This document shows positions 2,110-60,119 of a DNA stretch of 64,000 nucleotides, one piece after another (within the stretch, counting starts at the first letter, position 1; the number at the start of each line of letters is the position of its first letter). Source of the stretch: Herpetosiphon sp. NSE202 (lineage in GTDB: Bacteria > Chloroflexota > Chloroflexia > Chloroflexales > Herpetosiphonaceae); the NCBI RefSeq assembly GCF_042688385.1, contig NZ_JBHUPY010000007.1, forward strand, positions 322,110-386,109, written 5' to 3'. The notes under the pieces were generated by a model. That model had not been told where the DNA came from. It saw nothing but the letters and a program-made list of their open reading frames with translations, and did no database searches. The position numbers were made by a program, and so were the translations under genes.

Positions 2110-2278
2110 AGAATGTTTAACGGAGAGGCGCAGAGTGTTTTTTGCACGCGAAGCACCCAAAGTTTGGGAATTGGAACCCTAACAACAATCCAACAAACAA
2201 ACGTTAGGGGGTGTAGGGGGCTGAAAACCCCCGGCGTTTCCCTCCGGCGGAGGGACGGAAGGGTGGCGAACGATGCAA

Positions 2279-4438: not shown

Positions 4439-5295
4439 GCCTGGAGAATACTGGCAGTTGAACGATTGGGCAATTGTTCGCGCGCAAAACCAAACGGCGC
4501 AATCAAGCCATAATGTTCGTCGCTGCCAATAAATCCAAGCAACTGCTGATCGATTGCGCTGCGTAAATGGGTATCAGCAGGGCGCATCGCAAACGCCCCA
4601 TAGCCAATACTCAGATTACCATCGATGATTGGCGGCACAAATGGCTGAGCACGTTCAACCTGATTTGGCGCTTGCTGAACTAAGAGATCGACGCTAATGT
4701 CGGTTAAGGCTAAGCCATCGGCCCGCCCGGCGAGCACTGCCGCCAAGCCAGTTTGCACATCGGGCACAAATAATAATTGCTGAGCATCAATCCCAAGGAT
4801 TTGGGCGATTGTTGCTTCCTCAGCGCCGCGCATCACCGCCAACCACCGATCAGGTCGCCGAAAATCGCTAAAACTCTGAATACGCAGGGGATTGCCAAAC
4901 TGAACCAAGATCGCGGGACTCAGGGCAAAAGTTGGTTGACTAAAAGCCAACAGCTGGGCACGTTCGCAGGTAATAAACATGCCGCTAGCAATCAGATCAA
5001 ACTTGCCAGCCTGCAAGCCAGGAATTAAATCGGCCCACTCGGTCTGAACCCATTCAAGCTGAGGGATGCCTAAGCGCTGCATAACCCATGTCATTACCAC
5101 CGCCGCCTCGCCGTGCATCTCGCCGCTGGCACTACGATAAGCAAACGGAGCTTCGGGAGCATAGCCAATCCGGATCATGCCAGTGCGTTGGGCACGTTCT
5201 AAGGTTGTTTCCACCGGAGTTGTCAGCCACCAGATTAAAGCAGTGGTAACAATAATCAGCGTTAAACCAGCAAAGCTCCACCATGCTCGACGCAT
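4420..5295 (-). CDS. periplasmic substrate-binding protein (SBP_bac_3 / amino-acid ABC-type family), probably the ligand-binding partner of the downstream kinase
   Basis: 291 aa with an N-terminal signal/TM segment (WSFAGLTLIIVTTALIWWL). It has a type-II SBP-like two-lobe sequence pattern. Its 3' end overlaps the kinase start, indicating translational coupling. Confidence 0.75.
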   Translation of the reverse strand: MRRAWWSFAGLTLIIVTTALIWWLTTPVETTLERAQRTGMIRIGYAPEAPFAYRSASGEMHGEAAVVMTWVMQRLGIPQLEWVQTEWADLIPGLQAGKFDLIASGMFITCERAQLLAFSQPTFALSPAILVQFGNPLRIQSFSDFRRPDRWLAVMRGAEEATIAQILGIDAQQLLFVPDVQTGLAAVLAGRADGLALTDISVDLLVQQAPNQVERAQPFVPPIIDGNLSIGYGAFAMRPADTHLRSAIDQQLLGFIGSDEHYGLIAPFGFAREQLPNRSTASILQACEHGS

Positions 5296-14686: not shown

Positions 14687-14728
14687 CCCTCACCCCCAGC
14701 CCCTCTCCCACTCAACGCGGGCGAGGGG
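14687..14728. repeat. half-copy (single arm) of the G-rich palindromic MITE/REP-like element family
   Basis: ccctcacccccagcccctctcccactcaacgcgggcgagggg is the reverse complement of the right arm found in the five full copies. Confidence 0.6.
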
Positions 14729-28784: not shown

Positions 28785-28949
28785 TCATGAGTGGCTATAG
28801 GCTATGGGCTTTGGGAACCGCGAAGCACACGAAGGTTTCCTTTTTTAGCCACGAATTGCCCGAAGCATAGATTGTAGTCACAGATTTTTTGCCTTCTGCC
28901 TTTTGCCTTTTGCCTTCATCCCCGATCCCCAACCCCCGATCCCCAACCC

Positions 28950-31613: not shown

Positions 31614-31685
31614 CGAAATTCTTCCTCTCTATTCAATCATGAGTGGCGATGGGCTATGGGCTTTTGGCGTTAACCATAGCCTGAT

Positions 31686-31788
31686 CCCCTCACCCCCTAG
31701 CCCCCTCGCCCGCCCACGGGCGAGGGGGAACCACGCGGCACTTACTCCCCTCGCCCGCGTTCAGTGGGAGAGGGGCTGGGGGTGAGGG
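31686..31788. repeat. full copy (B) of the nested-palindromic G-rich MITE/REP-like element
   Basis: Left arm cccctcaccccctagccccctcgcccgcccacgggcgaggggg, spacer, then right arm cccctcgcccgcgttcagtgggagaggggctgggggtgaggg. The arms are mutual reverse complements. Confidence 0.7.
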
Positions 31789-31878
31789 CATGCTACTTAT
31801 TCCCAATCTAATGAACCCACATATAGCCGATAGCTCATAGCCCGATCCCCGATCCCCGATCCCCAGCCTCCATTCGCC

Positions 31879-37840: not shown

Positions 37841-38022
37841 CCCCTCACCCCAACCCCTCTCCCGCCCAGCAGGCGAGGGGCTTTAACCGCGTGGTTCTCT
37901 CCCAATTCCTTGGTGCATCACGGATGCTCTCCCTCGCCCGCATTCAGTGGATGACGAAACTTCAACTATTTCGCTCCCCCTCGCCCGCGTTCAGTGGGAG
38001 AGGGGGCTGGGGGGTGAGGGAA
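37841..38022. repeat. full copy (C) of the MITE/REP-like element, with an internal partial duplication of the right arm
   Basis: cccctcaccccaacccctctcccgcccagcaggcgagggg ... ccctcgcccgcattcagtgg ... cccctcgcccgcgttcagtgggagagggggctggggggtgaggg. Confidence 0.7.
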
Positions 38023-40907: not shown

Positions 40908-41075
40908 TTCCCTCACCCCAACCCCTCTCCCGCCCAGCGGGAGAGGGGCTTTTCATATGTTCTTGCACAATTCCAAGGGTCAGCTCCCCTCGCCCGCGCC
41001 GTGGGAGATTGGTAAACAAGGGTCGGCTCCCCCTCGCCCGCGTCCAGTGGGAGAGGGGGTTGGGGGGTGAGGGAA
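40908..41075. repeat. full copy (D) of the MITE/REP-like element, exactly filling the gap between the convergent dinG and PBP genes
   Basis: ttccctcaccccaacccctctcccgcccagcgggagagggg ... cccctcgcccgcgccgtgggag ... ccccctcgcccgcgtccagtgggagagggggttggggggtgagggaa. Confidence 0.7.
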
Positions 41076-41076
41076 C

Positions 41077-43935
41077 TTATTTCACGCTCAATACACTGAC
41101 GCTGCTGGTTACACGGTTGCCAGCTTGATCGATTGCTGTGGCGACAACGCGATAGGTTCCAGCTTGGGTTGGGCTAAAATCAAGGCTATAGGGCGCTTGA
41201 TCGCGCATAAACACCTCGCCATTGACCGTCCACTCAACCTTGGCAAGCTGGCGATCATCTTGGGCGTTGGCTTGAAACTGCACTGATTGGCCGCGCAAGG
41301 CCGTAGCTGGCACCGTGATGCTAATTGTTGGTGCAGTTCGATCAAGATAGATCGTGACTCGTTGCTCGTTCATGCCATTGCTTTGCTCAACCAACAAACG
41401 CAAACTATACTCGCCTTCGGGCAAGCCATCAGCATTCCAAATTGCCAACAAGCCATTGGAAATCCCGCCAAAGCCTTCGATAATCGTCGTCCAGCTGCTA
41501 GGATTCGCGCCAGTGCCCCAAGCAACCGTATAATCGCCAGCAGCGCTGCCGCGAATGCGAATTGGCGCGGCTAAGGCTGCACCATCTGTTGGCTCGATCA
41601 AGGCAATTGGAACATTGGCGTTGCCTGCATTGGTTGGATTCACCAAAGCACAAGGCTTGGTTGGCGGAGTTCCCAAGCCGCCAGTTTCGCCCCAATTGCC
41701 CGCCTCATCGGGATAGATTGCAAACACCCGATCTTCGCCTGGCTGGTCGGGCAAGGCCACACAATCGCCACTTGGGCCAACCCGAATCGTGCGATAGACA
41801 TTTTCGGTTTCGACTGGCTCAGTGCCATTAACAAAATATTCGCTGCGAATGTTGGGGCAGGCTTTCGATGGTTTGGTGCCAGTTGGAATACAAACTTCGT
41901 GCTCGGCAACATTCGCTGGTGGCGTAAATTGCTCGATTGGCAAGCCTTCGTGGAACTTGGTCATCAGGCGATTCCAAATCACGGCAGCACCAAATGAGCC
42001 AGGCACTGCATCCATTGGGCTATTATCGCTATTACCAACCCACGCGCCAATCACCACGCTCGGCGTATAGCCAACCGTCCAGCTATCACGGTCGTCGTCG
42101 GTCGTGCCGGTTTTGACCGCCGCAGGCCGATCGTTGGGCAATTCCATGGCATTGTCAGGCCCAAACATCCACTCGCGGGCTTGGTTATCGCTCAACATAC
42201 TTGAAACAATAAACGCCAAACCATTGCCATCTGGCCCCAAGGCTGGTTGGCTTGGTGGTTCGCTCCAAGCTTCGAGCACTTCGCCCCGCGTATTGACCAC
42301 CTTCAAAATCGTTGAGGCAGGTCGATAATTGCCCTCGTTGGCAAACACGCTGTAGGCAGTGGTCAATTCCATTAGGGTTACTTCGCCGCCGCCAAGCGCC
42401 AACGATAAACCATAGCGGGGGCGATCATCGAGGGTGCTGATGCCAACCCGCTGCATCAAACGCAAAAACTCATCAATACCCACATGATCGAGGGTTTTGA
42501 CCGCTGGCACGTTGAATGAATTGGCTAAGGCAACCCGAATCGAAACTGGCCCATGGAAATTACGATCATAATTTTTGGGCGCATAGACTTCGCCGCCAGC
42601 AAAGCGATATTCGGTGGGCACATCCCAAAGCACGCTGGCCGCCGTCCAATCGCGCATCATCGCCGCCGCATAGACAAACGGTTTGAGTGCCGAACCTGGT
42701 TGACGTTCGGCCAAAGCCACATTCACTTGGCCATCAATCGCCGCATTGTTGTAATCAGCCGAGCCGACCATCGCCAAGACTTGGTTGGTTTTGCGATCAA
42801 GCATCACTACCGCGCCGTTGGTTGCGTTTTGGGCAGTAATTTCGCTGACCCGTTGCTGCACCTCTTGCTGAGCGGTTGCCTGCCATTGCGGATCAAGCGT
42901 CGTGGTCACTCGCAAGCCGCCACGATAGAGCAATTCGGGGCCATAGCGCGCTTCAAGCAATTGGCGCACATAAAACACAAAGTGCGGTGCAGTTAAATTC
43001 ACTTGCGACGGCTTGACATACAATACTTCAGCAAAGGCTTGTTCAGCTTGCTGCTTGGTAATCATATTGTTGCGCACCATTGCTGCCAAGACGATCTCTT
43101 GGCGTTGTTTGGCGGCATCGGCATTAACCAAGGGATCAAGTTGCGATGGCGATTGAGGCAAGCCAGCCAACATCGCTGCTTGGGCCAAGCTTAAATCGCT
43201 CACGCTAACCCCAAAATAGGCTTGGGCAGCGGCCTCAGCGCCATAGGCATTATTGCCATAGGGAATTTCGTTCAAATACAAGGCCAAAATTTGATCTTTG
43301 GAATAGCGTTGGCTAATTTGATAGGCCAAAATTGCCTCGCGAATTTTGCGCTTGGGCGTTTGCTGGCCGCGTTCTTCTGGCGAAAGCAACACATTGCGCA
43401 CCAATTGCTGGGTAATCGTCGAAGCACCGCCTTGGCCAGTTTCTTGGTCGGTCAAATTGGCCAGCGCTGCACGGGCAATCGAAGGCAAATTAACCCCAGG
43501 ATTGGTATAGAAATTACTATCTTCGACCGCAATTGTGGCCTGTTTAAGATACTCGGAGAAGGCGCTGAACGGCACGACCGTGCGTTGGCCAGCGTTAGGA
43601 TCGAAAATCTCATACAGCAAGGTTGTGCCATCGCGGGCATAGAGTTTGGTGGTTTCAAAGGCGCGATGCGTGCCCAAATTATCAATCGAGGGCAAATTGC
43701 GGCTAAAATACCAATAGCCACCCAAGCCAGCTGCAAGGATGCAAAATACCCCAATCAGCAGCAGTTGCACCAAAAGAATCAGTGCTTTGAGCCACCATGG
43801 GCGCGCTTGACGGCGAGCAGCCCGCGCCGAACGCCGTTCCTGCCGAGTAGTTAATTGTGGTTGATCGCTGTTTGATTGTGCCATAGTCGTTTGGGGAATG
43901 GTCGCTGGGGAATGGGGGCTGGTTAAAATCAGCAT
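41077..43935 (-). CDS. class A penicillin-binding protein (glycosyltransferase GT51 plus transpeptidase) with a C-terminal Ig-like extension
   Basis: N-terminal TM; GT51 motifs (EDSNFYTNPGVN, GASTITQQLVRN); transpeptidase SxxK-like region and KTGTT. An alternative start is MAQSNSD at 43884. Confidence 0.85.
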   Translation of the reverse strand: MLILTSPHSPATIPQTTMAQSNSDQPQLTTRQERRSARAARRQARPWWLKALILLVQLLLIGVFCILAAGLGGYWYFSRNLPSIDNLGTHRAFETTKLYARDGTTLLYEIFDPNAGQRTVVPFSAFSEYLKQATIAVEDSNFYTNPGVNLPSIARAALANLTDQETGQGGASTITQQLVRNVLLSPEERGQQTPKRKIREAILAYQISQRYSKDQILALYLNEIPYGNNAYGAEAAAQAYFGVSVSDLSLAQAAMLAGLPQSPSQLDPLVNADAAKQRQEIVLAAMVRNNMITKQQAEQAFAEVLYVKPSQVNLTAPHFVFYVRQLLEARYGPELLYRGGLRVTTTLDPQWQATAQQEVQQRVSEITAQNATNGAVVMLDRKTNQVLAMVGSADYNNAAIDGQVNVALAERQPGSALKPFVYAAAMMRDWTAASVLWDVPTEYRFAGGEVYAPKNYDRNFHGPVSIRVALANSFNVPAVKTLDHVGIDEFLRLMQRVGISTLDDRPRYGLSLALGGGEVTLMELTTAYSVFANEGNYRPASTILKVVNTRGEVLEAWSEPPSQPALGPDGNGLAFIVSSMLSDNQAREWMFGPDNAMELPNDRPAAVKTGTTDDDRDSWTVGYTPSVVIGAWVGNSDNSPMDAVPGSFGAAVIWNRLMTKFHEGLPIEQFTPPANVAEHEVCIPTGTKPSKACPNIRSEYFVNGTEPVETENVYRTIRVGPSGDCVALPDQPGEDRVFAIYPDEAGNWGETGGLGTPPTKPCALVNPTNAGNANVPIALIEPTDGAALAAPIRIRGSAAGDYTVAWGTGANPSSWTTIIEGFGGISNGLLAIWNADGLPEGEYSLRLLVEQSNGMNEQRVTIYLDRTAPTISITVPATALRGQSVQFQANAQDDRQLAKVEWTVNGEVFMRDQAPYSLDFSPTQAGTYRVVATAIDQAGNRVTSSVSVLSVK

Positions 43936-44045
43936 ATTCCCGATCCCTGACCCCTAATCCCTGACCCCCACAAATAAATTTTGCGATAAAATTATAGCAT
44001 GCAGCCTACACCATTTTCGGTGATTATGCAGAAAGGATGTTTTGC

Positions 44046-54829: not shown

Positions 54830-55043
54830 CAACCAAGCCTAATCACCGGAAAAGCCGATAAAACACAATTCATGCGGCTGCTCGTTTTCGTAGGCAGTGA
54901 TGATAAAGCCTTGCCAGCGCTCGTGATGGTCTTAAATAGCCGACTCGTGGGCGATAATTTGGGCTTTGGTCGGGCGGGTCGTGCCAAAAATTTCGCGTTG
55001 GGCTATTAGACTATTTGTAATGGTTCATTTTAACGACGGTTTG

Positions 55044-55149
55044 CCCTCTCACCCCCTAGCCCCCTCTCCCGCCCGCGGGCGAGGGGGAACCGCTGAATCA
55101 GTGCTCCCCTCGCCCGCGTTTAGTGGGAGAGGGGCTGGGGGTGAGGGAA
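55044..55149. repeat. full copy (E) of the MITE/REP-like element
   Basis: ccctctcaccccctagccccctctcccgcccgcgggcgaggggg-aaccgctgaatcagtgct-cccctcgcccgcgtttagtgggagaggggctgggggtgagggaa. Confidence 0.7.
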
Positions 55150-55244
55150 TAACGTATTCAAGCTATTAAATTATTTGTTGTTCACGTTAAACTGTGCGAT
55201 CATCGAGCGTAATGGTGATGAGATTTTCACTCTGAGGAGTTTGC

Positions 55245-58076: not shown

Positions 58077-59213
58077 ATGTTGGAGGTAGGTGTGGCTGCT
58101 AAAATTGCCTTTATTCGCAAGGGTCGCTGGCCGCTGGCCAATGTGCGAACTGCCGAAACCTTACGTACTCAATTTCCCGAATATGAACTGCGTGAGATCG
58201 ATTTAATTCCTATCATTCGTCGCAAGCCTGCACTGGTTGCATTAAACGGCTGGTGGACGTTACGTCAATACGCTGGCGATTTGGCCTTGCGTCGGCGCGG
58301 CCCCAAAGATGCCTTTTTAATTACCAGTTATATTTTTAAAGCTGTCAAGCATTTGGTTGCCGATTTGCTGCGCGATGATGAGTATGTATTCAGTTTTCAG
58401 ATGCAATCATTATTTGATGCCAGCGTGCCAAATATCCCTCATTTTGTCTATACCGACCATACCTTGTTGGCAAATCGCCAATATCCGGGCTTTAATCCAG
58501 CCTCACTCTATCACCCAGACTGGATGAAATTAGAGCCAACAATTTATCAAAATGCCAAGATAGTCTTTACACGTTCGAATCATGTTTCGCGTTCGTTGAT
58601 CGAGGATTATCATTGCGAGCCGGAGAAAGTGCGCTGTGTTTATGCTGGCAGCAATGCACCAGTCATCAGCGAAGCGCCAGATCCTGCGCGCTATGCTAGC
58701 CAAAATATCGTCTATGTTGGGATAGATTGGGAGCGCAAAGGTGGCCCCGAATTGCTGCAAGCCTTCGCCCAAGTGCGGGCGGTTTATCCCAATGCAACCC
58801 TGACAATCATCGGCGCAACCCCGCAAACCAACCAACCTGGCGTTGAGGTCATTGGGCGAATTCCGGTGGAGCAATTGCCGCAGTATTACCAACGAGCTGC
58901 CGTTTTTTGCATGCCCACCAAACTTGAGCCATTTGGGATCGTGACGATTGAAGCGATGAATTATTGGCTGCCGGTAGTTTCGACCAACCTTGGAGCCATG
59001 CCCGACTTTATTGAGCACGATCGCAATGGCTATTTGGTCGAGCCAGGCACCGTTGATCAACTAGCAACCGCCTTGATCAAGTTGGTCGGCGATCCTGAAC
59101 GCTGTCGGCGTTTTGGCGCGCGCAGTGTCGAAATTGCGGCCCGCTATCGCTGGGAAGCGGTCGGTTCGGCCATGCGCGAGGCGATTATCCAGAACATAGA
59201 GCATAGAGCATAG
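58077..59213 (+). CDS. glycosyltransferase, GT4 family
   Basis: The C-terminal ...CMPTKLEPFGIVTIEAMNYWLPVVSTNLG region matches the GT4 ExFG..E motif context. Confidence 0.7.
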   Translation: MLEVGVAAKIAFIRKGRWPLANVRTAETLRTQFPEYELREIDLIPIIRRKPALVALNGWWTLRQYAGDLALRRRGPKDAFLITSYIFKAVKHLVADLLRDDEYVFSFQMQSLFDASVPNIPHFVYTDHTLLANRQYPGFNPASLYHPDWMKLEPTIYQNAKIVFTRSNHVSRSLIEDYHCEPEKVRCVYAGSNAPVISEAPDPARYASQNIVYVGIDWERKGGPELLQAFAQVRAVYPNATLTIIGATPQTNQPGVEVIGRIPVEQLPQYYQRAAVFCMPTKLEPFGIVTIEAMNYWLPVVSTNLGAMPDFIEHDRNGYLVEPGTVDQLATALIKLVGDPERCRRFGARSVEIAARYRWEAVGSAMREAIIQNIEHRA

Positions 59214-59228
59214 AACATAGAACATAAA

Positions 59229-59699
59229 CCGCGAAGGACACGAAGAGCACGAAGGGCGAGGGGTCAGGAATTTGCTTTTAACGCAGAGGCGCAGAGAGTA
59301 AGGATTGGGAGCTGGGGATCAGGGGTCGGGACGCTTGGCTATCGGCTTTTGGCTGAAGGCTATGGGATTAGGAGCCGGGGGTCAGGGGTCGCTTACAAGG
59401 GTAGGTTGTTAAGATCCCCTCACCCCAACCCCTCTCCCGTGGCGCGGGCGAGGGGCTTTAACGTGCTGGTTCTCCCACAATTCCTTGGCGAAACATGGTC
59501 GGCTCCCCCTCGCCCGCGTTCAGTGGGAGAGGGGGTTGGGGGTGAGGGAACGCTCCACTGCCGACCAATCGCTCAAAACCTACCCTTGTAAGGTCAGGGG
59601 TCGGGGATCGGGACGCTTGGCTTTGGGCGAACGGAAGCATAATCCCCATAATCTGTGGCGAAAAAAACTCATCCTTCGCGATCTTCGCGTCCTTCGCGG
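59229..59699. repeat. roughly 470-bp multi-layer palindromic repeat region containing MITE copy F (59416-59550)
   Basis: Outer inverted repeat ccgcgaaggacacgaagagcacgaagg (59229-59255) versus ccttcgcgatcttcgcgtccttcgcgg (59673-59699). Inner perfect 16-bp inverted repeat cttacaagggtaggtt (59392-59407) versus aacctacccttgtaag (59577-59592). Direct repeats gggacgcttggct and G-rich (ggggtc/ggggatc) tracts. Core element copy F carries its own two arms. Confidence 0.6.
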
Positions 59700-59769
59700 T
59701 TTCAGCCATGCGTGAATCAAAACTCCCTAGCCCCTGAATCCTGCTCCCTGAACCCTCGGAAAATCATCA

Positions 59770-59800
59770 CTTGACAAACTGAAATCTGCCTGCTATGCTT
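59770..59800 (+). promoter_or_regulatory. candidate sigma-70-type promoter of the lysine/leucine-type operon
   Basis: TTGACA-17 nt-TATGCT. Confidence 0.3.
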
Positions 59801-59835: not shown

Positions 59836-59922
59836 ATGTTCAGTCAACAATTGATTCTGAACTTGAAAAAACGCAGCGCAAAGAAGCCAGGCAGCGAGTC
59901 TGGTTTATTGCGTCGCGTCTAA
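59836..59922 (+). CDS. candidate Lys-rich leader peptide (28 aa)
   Basis: GGAG 9 nt upstream. MFSQQLILNLKKRSAKKPGSESGLLRRV*, with four Lys in eight residues. Followed at 59952-59984 by a terminator hairpin. Confidence 0.35.
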   Translation: MFSQQLILNLKKRSAKKPGSESGLLRRV

Positions 59923-59951
59923 ACAACACTCCACGCGCTCAATAAACTCAA

Positions 59952-59984
59952 GGCTCGCCGCCATAAACGGCGAGTCTTTTTTTG
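59952..59984 (+). terminator. intrinsic terminator / putative attenuator between the leader ORF and the LeuA-like gene
   Basis: ggctcgccg-ccataaa-cggcgagtc followed by TTTTTTTG. Confidence 0.5.
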
Positions 59985-60119
59985 TACCAAACGTCGGTTT
60001 TGAAAGGATTTTCCCATGGCCACACTCAAGCAACTTAAACGGATTAGCCATCTTCACCGCCCTGCGGCAGTTCGCCCTGAATTGTTCACCGGATGTTCTT
60101 GCGGAAGGATTGTGCTTTC

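Follow-up and report, generated by a model that had tools for sequence, protein, structure and literature searches.

MIC231 of Bacillus is an example of an IS4-family mobile insertion cassette. We here compare such cassettes, along with other classes of bacterial intergenic repeat, with a repeat region of about 470 bp in a 64-kb stretch of DNA from Herpetosiphon sp. NSE202 (hereafter the window, whose numbering is used throughout), located between a gene for a GT4-type glycosyltransferase and the promoter of a lysine operon. An initial annotation of the window had described the region as three concentric palindromic layers around a MITE (miniature inverted-repeat transposable element) termed copy F, and had suggested a composite insertion, a recombination hotspot or a structured non-coding RNA as its nature. 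Our analysis indicates that the region is most likely a historical stack of selfish or slippage repeats in a hypervariable spacer and not one designed palindrome. Each of its layers is of a known kind: an IS4-derived MITE, BoxC/triplex motifs, and boxes of heptamer and 9-mer simple sequence repeats (SSRs).

IS4-derived MITEs and cassettes are short non-coding units held within the terminal inverted repeats (TIRs) of DDE(YREK) elements of the IS4 family (as defined by De Palmenaer et al., 2008; PMC2266710), with variable cargo. The element in the window is alike in this respect and in its target site duplication (TSD), which is 11 bp long within a range of about 10-13 bp for such elements. It differs in that no parent copy was seen in the Herpetosiphon DNA examined (about 134 kb in all, of which 17 kb from H. 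giganteus), and the ends of its clade start with CT, in contrast to CAT or CA in the IS231, ISH8 and IS4Sa subgroups. ISNpu3-like transposases mobilise Nezha, a MITE of 130-170 bp in Anabaena and Nostoc (Zhou et al., 2008, via PMC3184786). As summarised there, Nezha shares TIRs and direct repeats with an insertion sequence (IS), has a stable hairpin, and occupies sites that are empty or filled in sister species, and the window MITE would be like it in these respects. Transposases homologous to those of the window MITE's clade also occur in Nostoc.

Triplex motifs (TMs), also known as BoxC or potential intrastrand triplex (PIT) elements, occur in more than 260 genomes, singly or in inverted tandem, and form intrastrand triplexes in vitro (Holder et al., 2015; PMC4666352). 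They have been tied to locally raised rearrangement and genomic instability, and no mobility genes are found near the E. coli TMs (PMC4666352). The units in the window share their architecture, namely CCCTC(G/T)CCC, a loop, GGGAGAGGG, 2-3 nt and GGGGTGAGGG, as well as the "mm" G/T mismatch in the stem, the arrangement in inverted tandem pairs, and the intergenic position in rearranged or variable loci (PMC4666352). Conversely, the pair studied here lies inside a MITE with TIRs and a TSD, the loops in the window are longer (7-9 nt), and triplex formation is predicted. G-rich SSRs with heptameric units, documented in Xanthomonas (GGGAATC) and in Nostoc (GGGGA(C/T)T) (Rehm et al., 2015; PMC4692102), resemble the arrays of this locus, as do the heptanucleotide tandem repeats of cyanobacteria: they are intergenic G4-run heptamers in tandem that vary between relatives and sometimes form inverted pairs with stem-loop or cruciform potential. 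They differ in that the units in the window are GGGGTCA/GGGGATC, GARCATA and a 9-mer CGCGAAGGA box, in that the phylum is Chloroflexota, and in that an array was the target of a MITE insertion. The spacer further recalls the bacterial interspersed mosaic elements (BIMEs) of E. coli, which combine repetitive extragenic palindromic (REP) sequences with other boxes, in being a mosaic of short dispersed motifs, and it recalls the REP doublets known as REPINs in having an inverted doublet of hairpin units. REP sequences and REPINs have no TIRs or TSDs, whereas the mobile unit in the window has classical ones, which argues for DDE-type mobilisation over mobilisation of the REP/REPIN type by a REP-associated tyrosine transposase (RAYT).

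A 201-bp MITE and Its Empty Sites

The central element and its boundaries are as follows.

59392-59592, no strand assigned: MITE of 201 bp that an IS4-family IS either gave rise to or could mobilise, identified by empty sites in H. giganteus and H. geysericola, by a family of like TIRs, and by parent-type IS copies in Stanieria and Nostoc
59392-59407, forward strand: left TIR, CTTACAAGGGTAGGTT, the same as the first 16 nt of the end of the Stanieria IS
59577-59592, reverse strand: right TIR, AACCTACCCTTGTAAG, the perfect 16-bp partner of the left TIR
59381-59391, no strand assigned: left TSD copy, GTCAGGGGTCG, 11 bp, inside a GGGGTCA-type heptamer array and identical to the right copy at 11 of 11 positions
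59593-59603, no strand assigned: right TSD copy, GTCAGGGGTCG, 11 bp, abutting the right TIR

Open reading frames (ORFs) across the 201-bp MITE are repeat-derived frames with no family match, and there is no transposase gene; the interior consists of BoxC hairpins. The inner inverted repeat (IR) of the initial annotation, cttacaagggtaggtt / aacctacccttgtaag, was recovered as a perfect 16-nt repeat (59392-59407 / 59577-59592) and corresponds to the TIRs of this unit. With an 11-bp TSD, an empty site in H. giganteus and a repeat of a different type inside, the unit bears out the earlier suggestion of a composite insertion.

Orthologous loci were found via the GT4 protein in five Herpetosiphon genomes: H. 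giganteus (L001; GT4 98% identical at the amino acid level), H. llansteffanensis (L002), H. geysericola (L003), H. aurantiacus DSM 785 (L004) and a metagenome-assembled genome (MAG; L005). The comparison with relatives that had been proposed along with the initial annotation showed the orthologous site to be empty in both H. giganteus and H. geysericola. The former is without exactly 59392-59592 and has a single target-like sequence (..TTCAGGGGTCAGG..) and a single unit of 63 bp; the latter is likewise empty and unduplicated, as far as its own separate insertion. Because H. geysericola shares the empty state with H. giganteus, parsimony favours insertion of the 201-bp unit in the lineage of the window. 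Shifted-register controls at the MITE site matched at no more than 4 of 11 positions, compared to 11 of 11 for the TSD. There is one copy of the MITE in the window, and there are two related copies in the 17 kb of H. giganteus. At L003:9255-9379, H. geysericola carries a different element in the same G-heptamer array; its beginning, CATAGGTGGTAACTTAAG, fits the IS231-subgroup end consensus CAT-------AA--TAA, and 130 bp further on the contig stops.

Elements With the Same Ends and a Parent-Type IS

A metagenome scan for the pattern CAAGGGTAGRTT-N(145-175)-AACCTACCCTTG (written for any spacing, the TIR pair is CTTWCAAGGGTAG...CTACCCTTGWAAG) yielded 18 contigs with GC contents of 37-68%, in which elements of 180-207 bp have the ends YTNNCAAGGGTAGGTTTTT and unrelated interiors. 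When 20 distinct elements were tested for TSDs, the 11-nt flanks matched at 9 or more of 11 positions in 12 of them and perfectly in nine, and the mean flank match was 8.1/11 compared to 3.5 +/- 0.46 with permuted partners. The paired TIRs gave no matches in viral contigs. One of the two related copies in H. giganteus (L001:16288-16466) is a non-orthologous element of 179 bp with matching ends and an unrelated interior, situated in a GGGGTCA array and flanked by GGGTCAGGGGC / GGGTCAGGAGC; the other (L001:4916-5073) is partial and chimeric. Inside the 179-bp element is a GGGGGTGCAGGGGG...CCCCCTGC hairpin that resembles the one at 2205-2250 of the window.

In a BLAST search against plasmids, the joined ends of the MITE matched Stanieria cyanosphaera pSTA7437.02 (L025) at the end of a transposase gene. 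The IS at this location (L025:1737-3029) is 1293 bp long and has a perfect 24-bp TIR starting with CTTACAAGGGTAGGTT, the first 16 nt of which are identical to the 16 nt of the window MITE, and an 11-bp TSD, GATTATACATC. Its transposase of 391 amino acids matches PF01609 above the cut-off (E = 7e-8), while its best NCBIfam match is an IS4-family model (1.5e-25) at 90 bits versus a cut-off of 152, such that it is not a member of that equivalog. For assignment to the IS4 family we applied the criterion of DDE_Tnp_1 with D(60-110)D(100-150)E plus Y(2)R(3)E(6)K; the protein has D115/D178/E280 and a Y(2)R(3)E(6)K motif, YGFRSWIECSYRDVK, at residues 273-287. TSDs of about 10-13 bp are typical of the IS4 family, with 7-13 bp across its subgroups (PMC2266710, Table 1), in contrast to only 4-6 bp in IS701, ISH3 and IS1634 (PMC2266710). 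Given the DDE residues, the YREK motif and a TSD within the range of about 10-13 bp, the Stanieria-type parent element is assigned to the IS4 family on the basis of its sequence.

This transposase has 1814 homologous proteins at E <= 1e-10, with cyanobacterial ones ranking highest; plasmids carrying homologs come from Nostoc (50-57% identity) and from Methylomagnum, a gammaproteobacterium (41%). The IS copy of Nostoc CENA543 (L029) has the ends CTTTCAAGGGTAGGGG and a perfect 11-bp TSD, AGGGGCCACCG, and that of Methylomagnum has the ends CTTACAAGTGTAGGTTTTT; the ends of both copies are near-identical to those above. Near-identical ends are present in Chloroflexota, Cyanobacteria, Gammaproteobacteria and the metagenome hosts with their 37-68% GC. 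Searching full texts for the TIR string brought up nothing but eukaryotic primers without relation to it, and no description of the TIR clade CTTWCAAGGGTAGGTTTTT was found in the searchable literature. This cross-phylum TIR/IS4 clade, which has unusually conserved ends and a clean 11-bp TSD, is mildly new, and so is its carriage of BoxC pairs. The literature on Herpetosiphon repeats yielded nothing specific. A "mobile promoter" that H. aurantiacus shares with three other phyla (PMC3488235) was also considered, and no link to the MITE was established.

The BoxC/PIT Pair Within the MITE

The interior of the MITE is dominated by two units.

59417-59455, reverse strand: BoxC/PIT/triplex-motif unit, CCCCTCGCCC-loop-GGGAGAGGGG-TT-GGGGTGAGGG, found with a TMECO-based regular expression
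59505-59548, forward strand: second BoxC/triplex-motif unit, inverted with respect to the first, found by regular expression and repeat search; the two are the "MITE arms"

The element arms of the initial annotation were recovered at 59416-59438 / 59525-59547. Each "MITE" copy in the window is built of CCCTC(G/T)CCC-loop-GGGAGAGGG-NN-GGGGTGAGGG units. The regular expression, which was modelled on the E. coli TMECO architecture and matches the Table 1 sequences of Holder et al. (2015; PMC4666352), found 10 sites in the window, including 59417-59455 (reverse) and 59505-59548 (forward), and none in shuffles. Further BoxC units are located at 14687-14728, 31687-31788, 37842-38020, 40910-41073 and 55046-55147 (four inverted pairs and one single unit). 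Copy F is alone in having these boundaries: no IS4-type TIR plus TSD was found around any other BoxC pair of the window or around the single unit, and for this reason the BoxC pair cannot be regarded as an IS4-MITE in general. Around BoxC pairs of H. aurantiacus and the MAG there is what looks like another type of end, CTGTAATGGTTCAT..., with no clean TSD. The only match of the 201-bp unit in a BLAST search against plasmids was to one triplex-motif unit, in Cupriavidus sp. EM10 (plasmid NZ_CP076061.1, 1091552-1091598; 89%), illustrating conservation of the motif across phyla.

We think that the BoxC pair travelled as cargo rather than entering the MITE at this locus, because the TIR, the GTTAAGAT spacer and the core recur together at the non-orthologous L001:4916-5073 (82.6% identical). 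Triplex motifs are also found within same-ended MITEs of unrelated metagenome hosts (L012, L015/L022). The surroundings of the H. giganteus copy have a history of their own. Comparison of window 55000-55172, L001:4840-5090 and L002:4359-5095 shows that about 740 bp of a minus-strand gene were swapped for a triplex-motif pair region; the segment is replaced in the window and in H. giganteus, and the gene is present in the three other species. The resident pair of H. giganteus at 4840-5090 is a chimera into which the left TIR and interior of an F-type MITE have been fused, and is therefore evidence for recombination between dispersed copies.

Tandem Duplication, Outer Repeat and Spacer Boxes

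The remaining parts of the repeat region surround the MITE.

59191-59226, forward strand: GARCATA heptamer array of 5.1 copies (Tandem Repeats Finder, regular expression), overlapping the last codons and stop of the GT4 gene
59226-59260, forward strand: left arm of the outer IR, one copy of the dispersed 9-mer box AAACCRCGAAGGACRCGAAG...
59280-59296, forward strand: dispersed box AACGCAGAGGCGCAGAG, also at window 2119, L001:9192 and 16529, L003:9201, L004:13990 and L005:16146
59302-59364, forward strand: unit 1 of a tandem duplication, about 63 bp, containing the earlier GGGACGCTTGGCT copy together with G-rich heptamers; in H. giganteus the unit occurs once
59365-59391, forward strand: 5' part of duplication unit 2, cut by the MITE, its last 11 nt being the left TSD copy
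59604-59646, forward strand: 3' part of duplication unit 2, with the second GGGACGCTTGGCT, colinear with H. giganteus
59668-59702, reverse strand: right arm of the outer IR, a second copy of the 9-mer box in opposite orientation

The direct repeats and simple motifs reported earlier were all found, with copies of GGGACGCTTGGCT at 59328 and 59610 and with heptamer and 9-mer arrays, for which Tandem Repeats Finder gave AGAACAT x5.1 (59191-59226) and a 9-mer array (59673-59698). If the MITE is taken out along with one copy of the TSD, unit 2 and the lone unit of H. giganteus align colinearly. Judged by this alignment, the gggacgcttggct x2 direct repeat is the product of a tandem duplication of about 63 bp that was later split by the MITE.

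The outer 27-bp IR (59229-59255 / 59673-59699) is present where it had been placed, with an identity of 89% (24/27 complementary) instead of the reported 92% or so, and has a longer form of 35 nt that is 86% complementary (59226-59260 / 59668-59702). Its arms are distributed independently of each other: H. giganteus has the right arm only, the left is present in H. geysericola, and H. aurantiacus and the MAG have neither. The 9-mer box AAACCRCGAAGGACRCGAAG itself has 15 matches, in both orientations, in the approximately 134 kb of Herpetosiphon DNA. We also considered the outer arms as TIRs of an element of about 477 bp and rejected this, given the lack of a flanking duplication and the independence of the arms in sister species. 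The three layers are not concentric as had been claimed, having no common axis; their centres are at about 59464 (outer), 59492 (16-bp IR) and 59482 (core arms).

The IRs are far above the background expected for this G-rich composition, a comparison on which the initial annotation had made its reading depend. The best ungapped IR score in 59181-59760 was 21, compared to 10.3 +/- 1.5 (maximum 16) in 200 dinucleotide-preserving shuffles. The RNA fold of 59185-59760 (576 nt) has a predicted energy of -252.8 kcal/mol (z = -6.7 versus shuffles), and the DNA fold of the 201-bp unit one of -60.5 kcal/mol (z = -8.3), which no shuffle equalled.

The copy number of GARCATA differs among species; the GT4 stop codon falls within this array, and repeat variation alters the C-terminus and stop from species to species, the last residues before the stop being QNIEHRA, QNIE or QNIEHRT. 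The H. aurantiacus spacer has GAGCATA / TATGCTC and GGGGTCA / TGACCCC arrays in inverted arrangement. The box TTTTAACGCAGAGGCGCAGAG (window 2119-2135 and 59280-59296; L001:16529; L004:13990; L005:16146) occurs in spacers of all species, with constant orientation in the loci examined. In the window, heptamer arrays are also present in the spacers at 28793-28949, 31645-31864 and 43892-43968 (GGCTATG, TGCCTTC, ATCCCCG, CCCGATC, TGGGGAA), often with one G-rich and one C-rich side, which produces imperfect long IRs. IRs made of heptamer arrays appear to be a general trait of spacers in this genome.

A Hypervariable Spacer Next to a Conserved Promoter

The flanks of the repeat region contain the following features.

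58077-59213: ORF of the GT4-type glycosyltransferase, upstream of the repeat region
59719-59799, forward strand: conserved promoter-proximal block of C-rich heptamers followed by TTGACA-17-TATGCT, outside the palindrome
59771-59799, forward strand: promoter-like site TTGACA-17-TATGCT, from a promoter scan

The setting originally described, between a GT4 gene and a lysine operon promoter, is correct: the GT4 gene, the promoter-like site, and genes for homocitrate synthase and homoaconitase as downstream neighbours were all found. Identity of the flanks is 92-96% with H. giganteus and 82-91% with H. aurantiacus and the MAG. Amid these flanks of 82-96% identity, the spacer between the GT4 gene and the lysine operon is the sole non-alignable stretch in the five Herpetosiphon genomes, with different insertions in different species, and two of the five contigs, that of H. 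llansteffanensis included, terminate inside it. Comparison therefore supports the recombination hotspot proposed in the initial annotation. The alignment picks up again at 59719 with the MAG and at 59760 with H. aurantiacus.

The lysine promoter, leader ORF and terminator begin about 120 bp past the MITE and are kept in species with or without the structure; in H. giganteus they are identical despite the absence of the inner 201 bp and of the left outer arm. As a result of this conservation a regulatory role is unlikely, and the repeat stack probably has no dedicated role in control of the lysine operon. The leader ORF of the operon (alpha-aminoadipate pathway), at 59837-59923, MFSQQLILNLKKRSAKKPGSESGLLRRV, is 28 codons long and includes two KK pairs, and a strong intrinsic terminator follows at 59950-59985 (also delimited as 59950-59978). 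The promoter-like site, leader ORF and terminator are conserved in H. giganteus, H. aurantiacus and the MAG, and the leader looks like one for leader-peptide attenuation responsive to lysine.

Proposed History and Alternative Explanations

The stack would have been built up in several steps. The spacer may first have held short arrays of GARCATA, GGGGTCA-type heptamers and the 9-mer box, and a segment of about 63 bp was then duplicated in tandem, as comparison with H. giganteus shows. The 201-bp MITE with the TIR CTTACAAGGGTAGGTT next entered the GGGGTCA heptamer array of the second unit, to judge by its TSD and the empty site; an IS4-family DDE transposase acting in trans would have made the 11-bp staggered cut behind the duplication of GTCAGGGGTCG. 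The MITE may prefer G-run targets. It carries as cargo the inverted BoxC/PIT triplex-motif pair that forms the innermost arms, and the outer IR consists of two oppositely oriented copies of the 9-mer box, gained or lost independently in sister species. The resulting DNA and RNA would be prone to form hairpins, cruciforms and, by prediction, triplexes, making the spacer unstable.

Several points weigh against this history. The target site of the MITE lies in a periodic heptamer array, where flanking direct repeats are likelier to occur by chance. No homolog of the Stanieria transposase was found by tblastn in the approximately 134 kb of Herpetosiphon DNA or in the metagenome loci, and given the absence of a clade transposase from that Herpetosiphon DNA, current mobility of the MITE in this genome is unproven. 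The chimera at L001:4916-5073 shows that recombinational exchange takes place, and the BoxC pair may predate the spread of the MITE or have been recombined into it. There is also a weak case for a secondary role of the large hairpin in ending or stabilising the GT4 transcript.

Exaptation as a transcription barrier or stabiliser has been reported for some REP and MITE elements. A larger claim for this locus would be that the stack is a factor-independent transcription barrier or 3'-end stabiliser of the GT4 mRNA that shields the lysine operon, the MITE having been exapted. This would suit the very strong predicted hairpin, the presence of a hairpin-forming repeat in the spacer of all five species save H. 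giganteus (which has heptamer and 9-mer arrays only), and the lack of any terminator-like site on the forward strand of 59213-59771, the sole good one being the lysine leader terminator at 59950-59985. However, none of the repeat stems on the forward strand of 59213-59771 has the GC stem followed by a T-run of an intrinsic terminator, H. giganteus manages without the MITE, and PIT/BoxC elements acted neither as promoters nor as terminators in E. coli according to the summary in PMC4666352, leading us to consider a role of this kind unlikely. Nesting could also have happened in situ, with an empty IS4-type MITE already in place when the BoxC/triplex pair transposed into it. Same-ended MITEs with unrelated interiors, such as H. 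giganteus L001:16288-16466, and BoxC pairs elsewhere in the window without IS4-type ends are consistent with such a sequence of events. Conversely, L001:4916-5073 shares the left TIR, GTTAAGAT and the core, which indicates that TIR and core propagated as a unit, and the MITEs of unrelated hosts (L012, L015/L022) hold triplex motifs as well; nesting in situ is accordingly quite improbable.

Readings in which the region is a single structure fare worse. The whole of its approximately 470 bp could be one selected palindrome that regulates or insulates the lysine operon promoter by cruciform formation or factor binding, as might be imagined from its very stable predicted fold and its position 69-180 bp upstream of the -35 box. 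Its layers are centred at three different points, however, and its outer arms vary independently; the closest species has neither the inner 201 bp nor the left outer arm and still has an identical promoter, leader ORF and terminator, while H. aurantiacus and the MAG carry wholly different repeats in this spacer. This makes a single functional palindrome very unlikely, and comparison of the loci has largely refuted it already. A structured non-coding RNA, another of the original suggestions, stands at a slightly lower level still. The RNA fold (z = -6.7) speaks for it, but a window-wide Rfam search gave no matches at gathering thresholds and, at E up to 1, only chance-level ones well below gathering scores, and the promoter scan found no promoter-like site within the region. 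A shared terminal stem around unrelated interiors is characteristic of transposon ends rather than RNA families, the 11-bp duplications on either side are a signature of DNA transposition, and the layers differ in origin as well as in centre. The chance that the IRs merely reflect G-rich, low-complexity composition is negligible: the region is indeed G-rich and made of short periodic motifs, but dinucleotide-preserving shuffles never attained the observed IR score or fold energy, and the 16-bp IR recurs as an element end in 18 unrelated contigs and on IS copies.

Implications

The accumulation of repeats in a hypervariable spacer thus remains the best account of the region: what stands out as a 470-bp "palindrome" beside a biosynthetic operon is repeat DNA that has accumulated there rather than a device for regulation, and it leaves the promoter and leader of the lysine operon untouched. 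BoxC/triplex motifs are seen here inside a TIR-bounded mobile unit, their mobility having been an open question since their description. One could go further and suppose that BoxC/PIT pairs, for which no spreading route is known, spread at least partly by riding in IS4-family MITEs of a clade that crosses phyla and may prefer to integrate into G-run heptamer arrays. The near-identical ends in several phyla, three unrelated MITE lineages with triplex motifs (those of the window, L012 and L015), and the position of both full Herpetosiphon MITE copies within GGGGTCA arrays point in this direction, and we offer the idea as a tentative and rather doubtful one. Herpetosiphon spacers are, like those of cyanobacteria, mosaics of heptamer arrays, triplex motifs and MITEs, and such mosaic spacers break draft assemblies and mark hypervariable sites.

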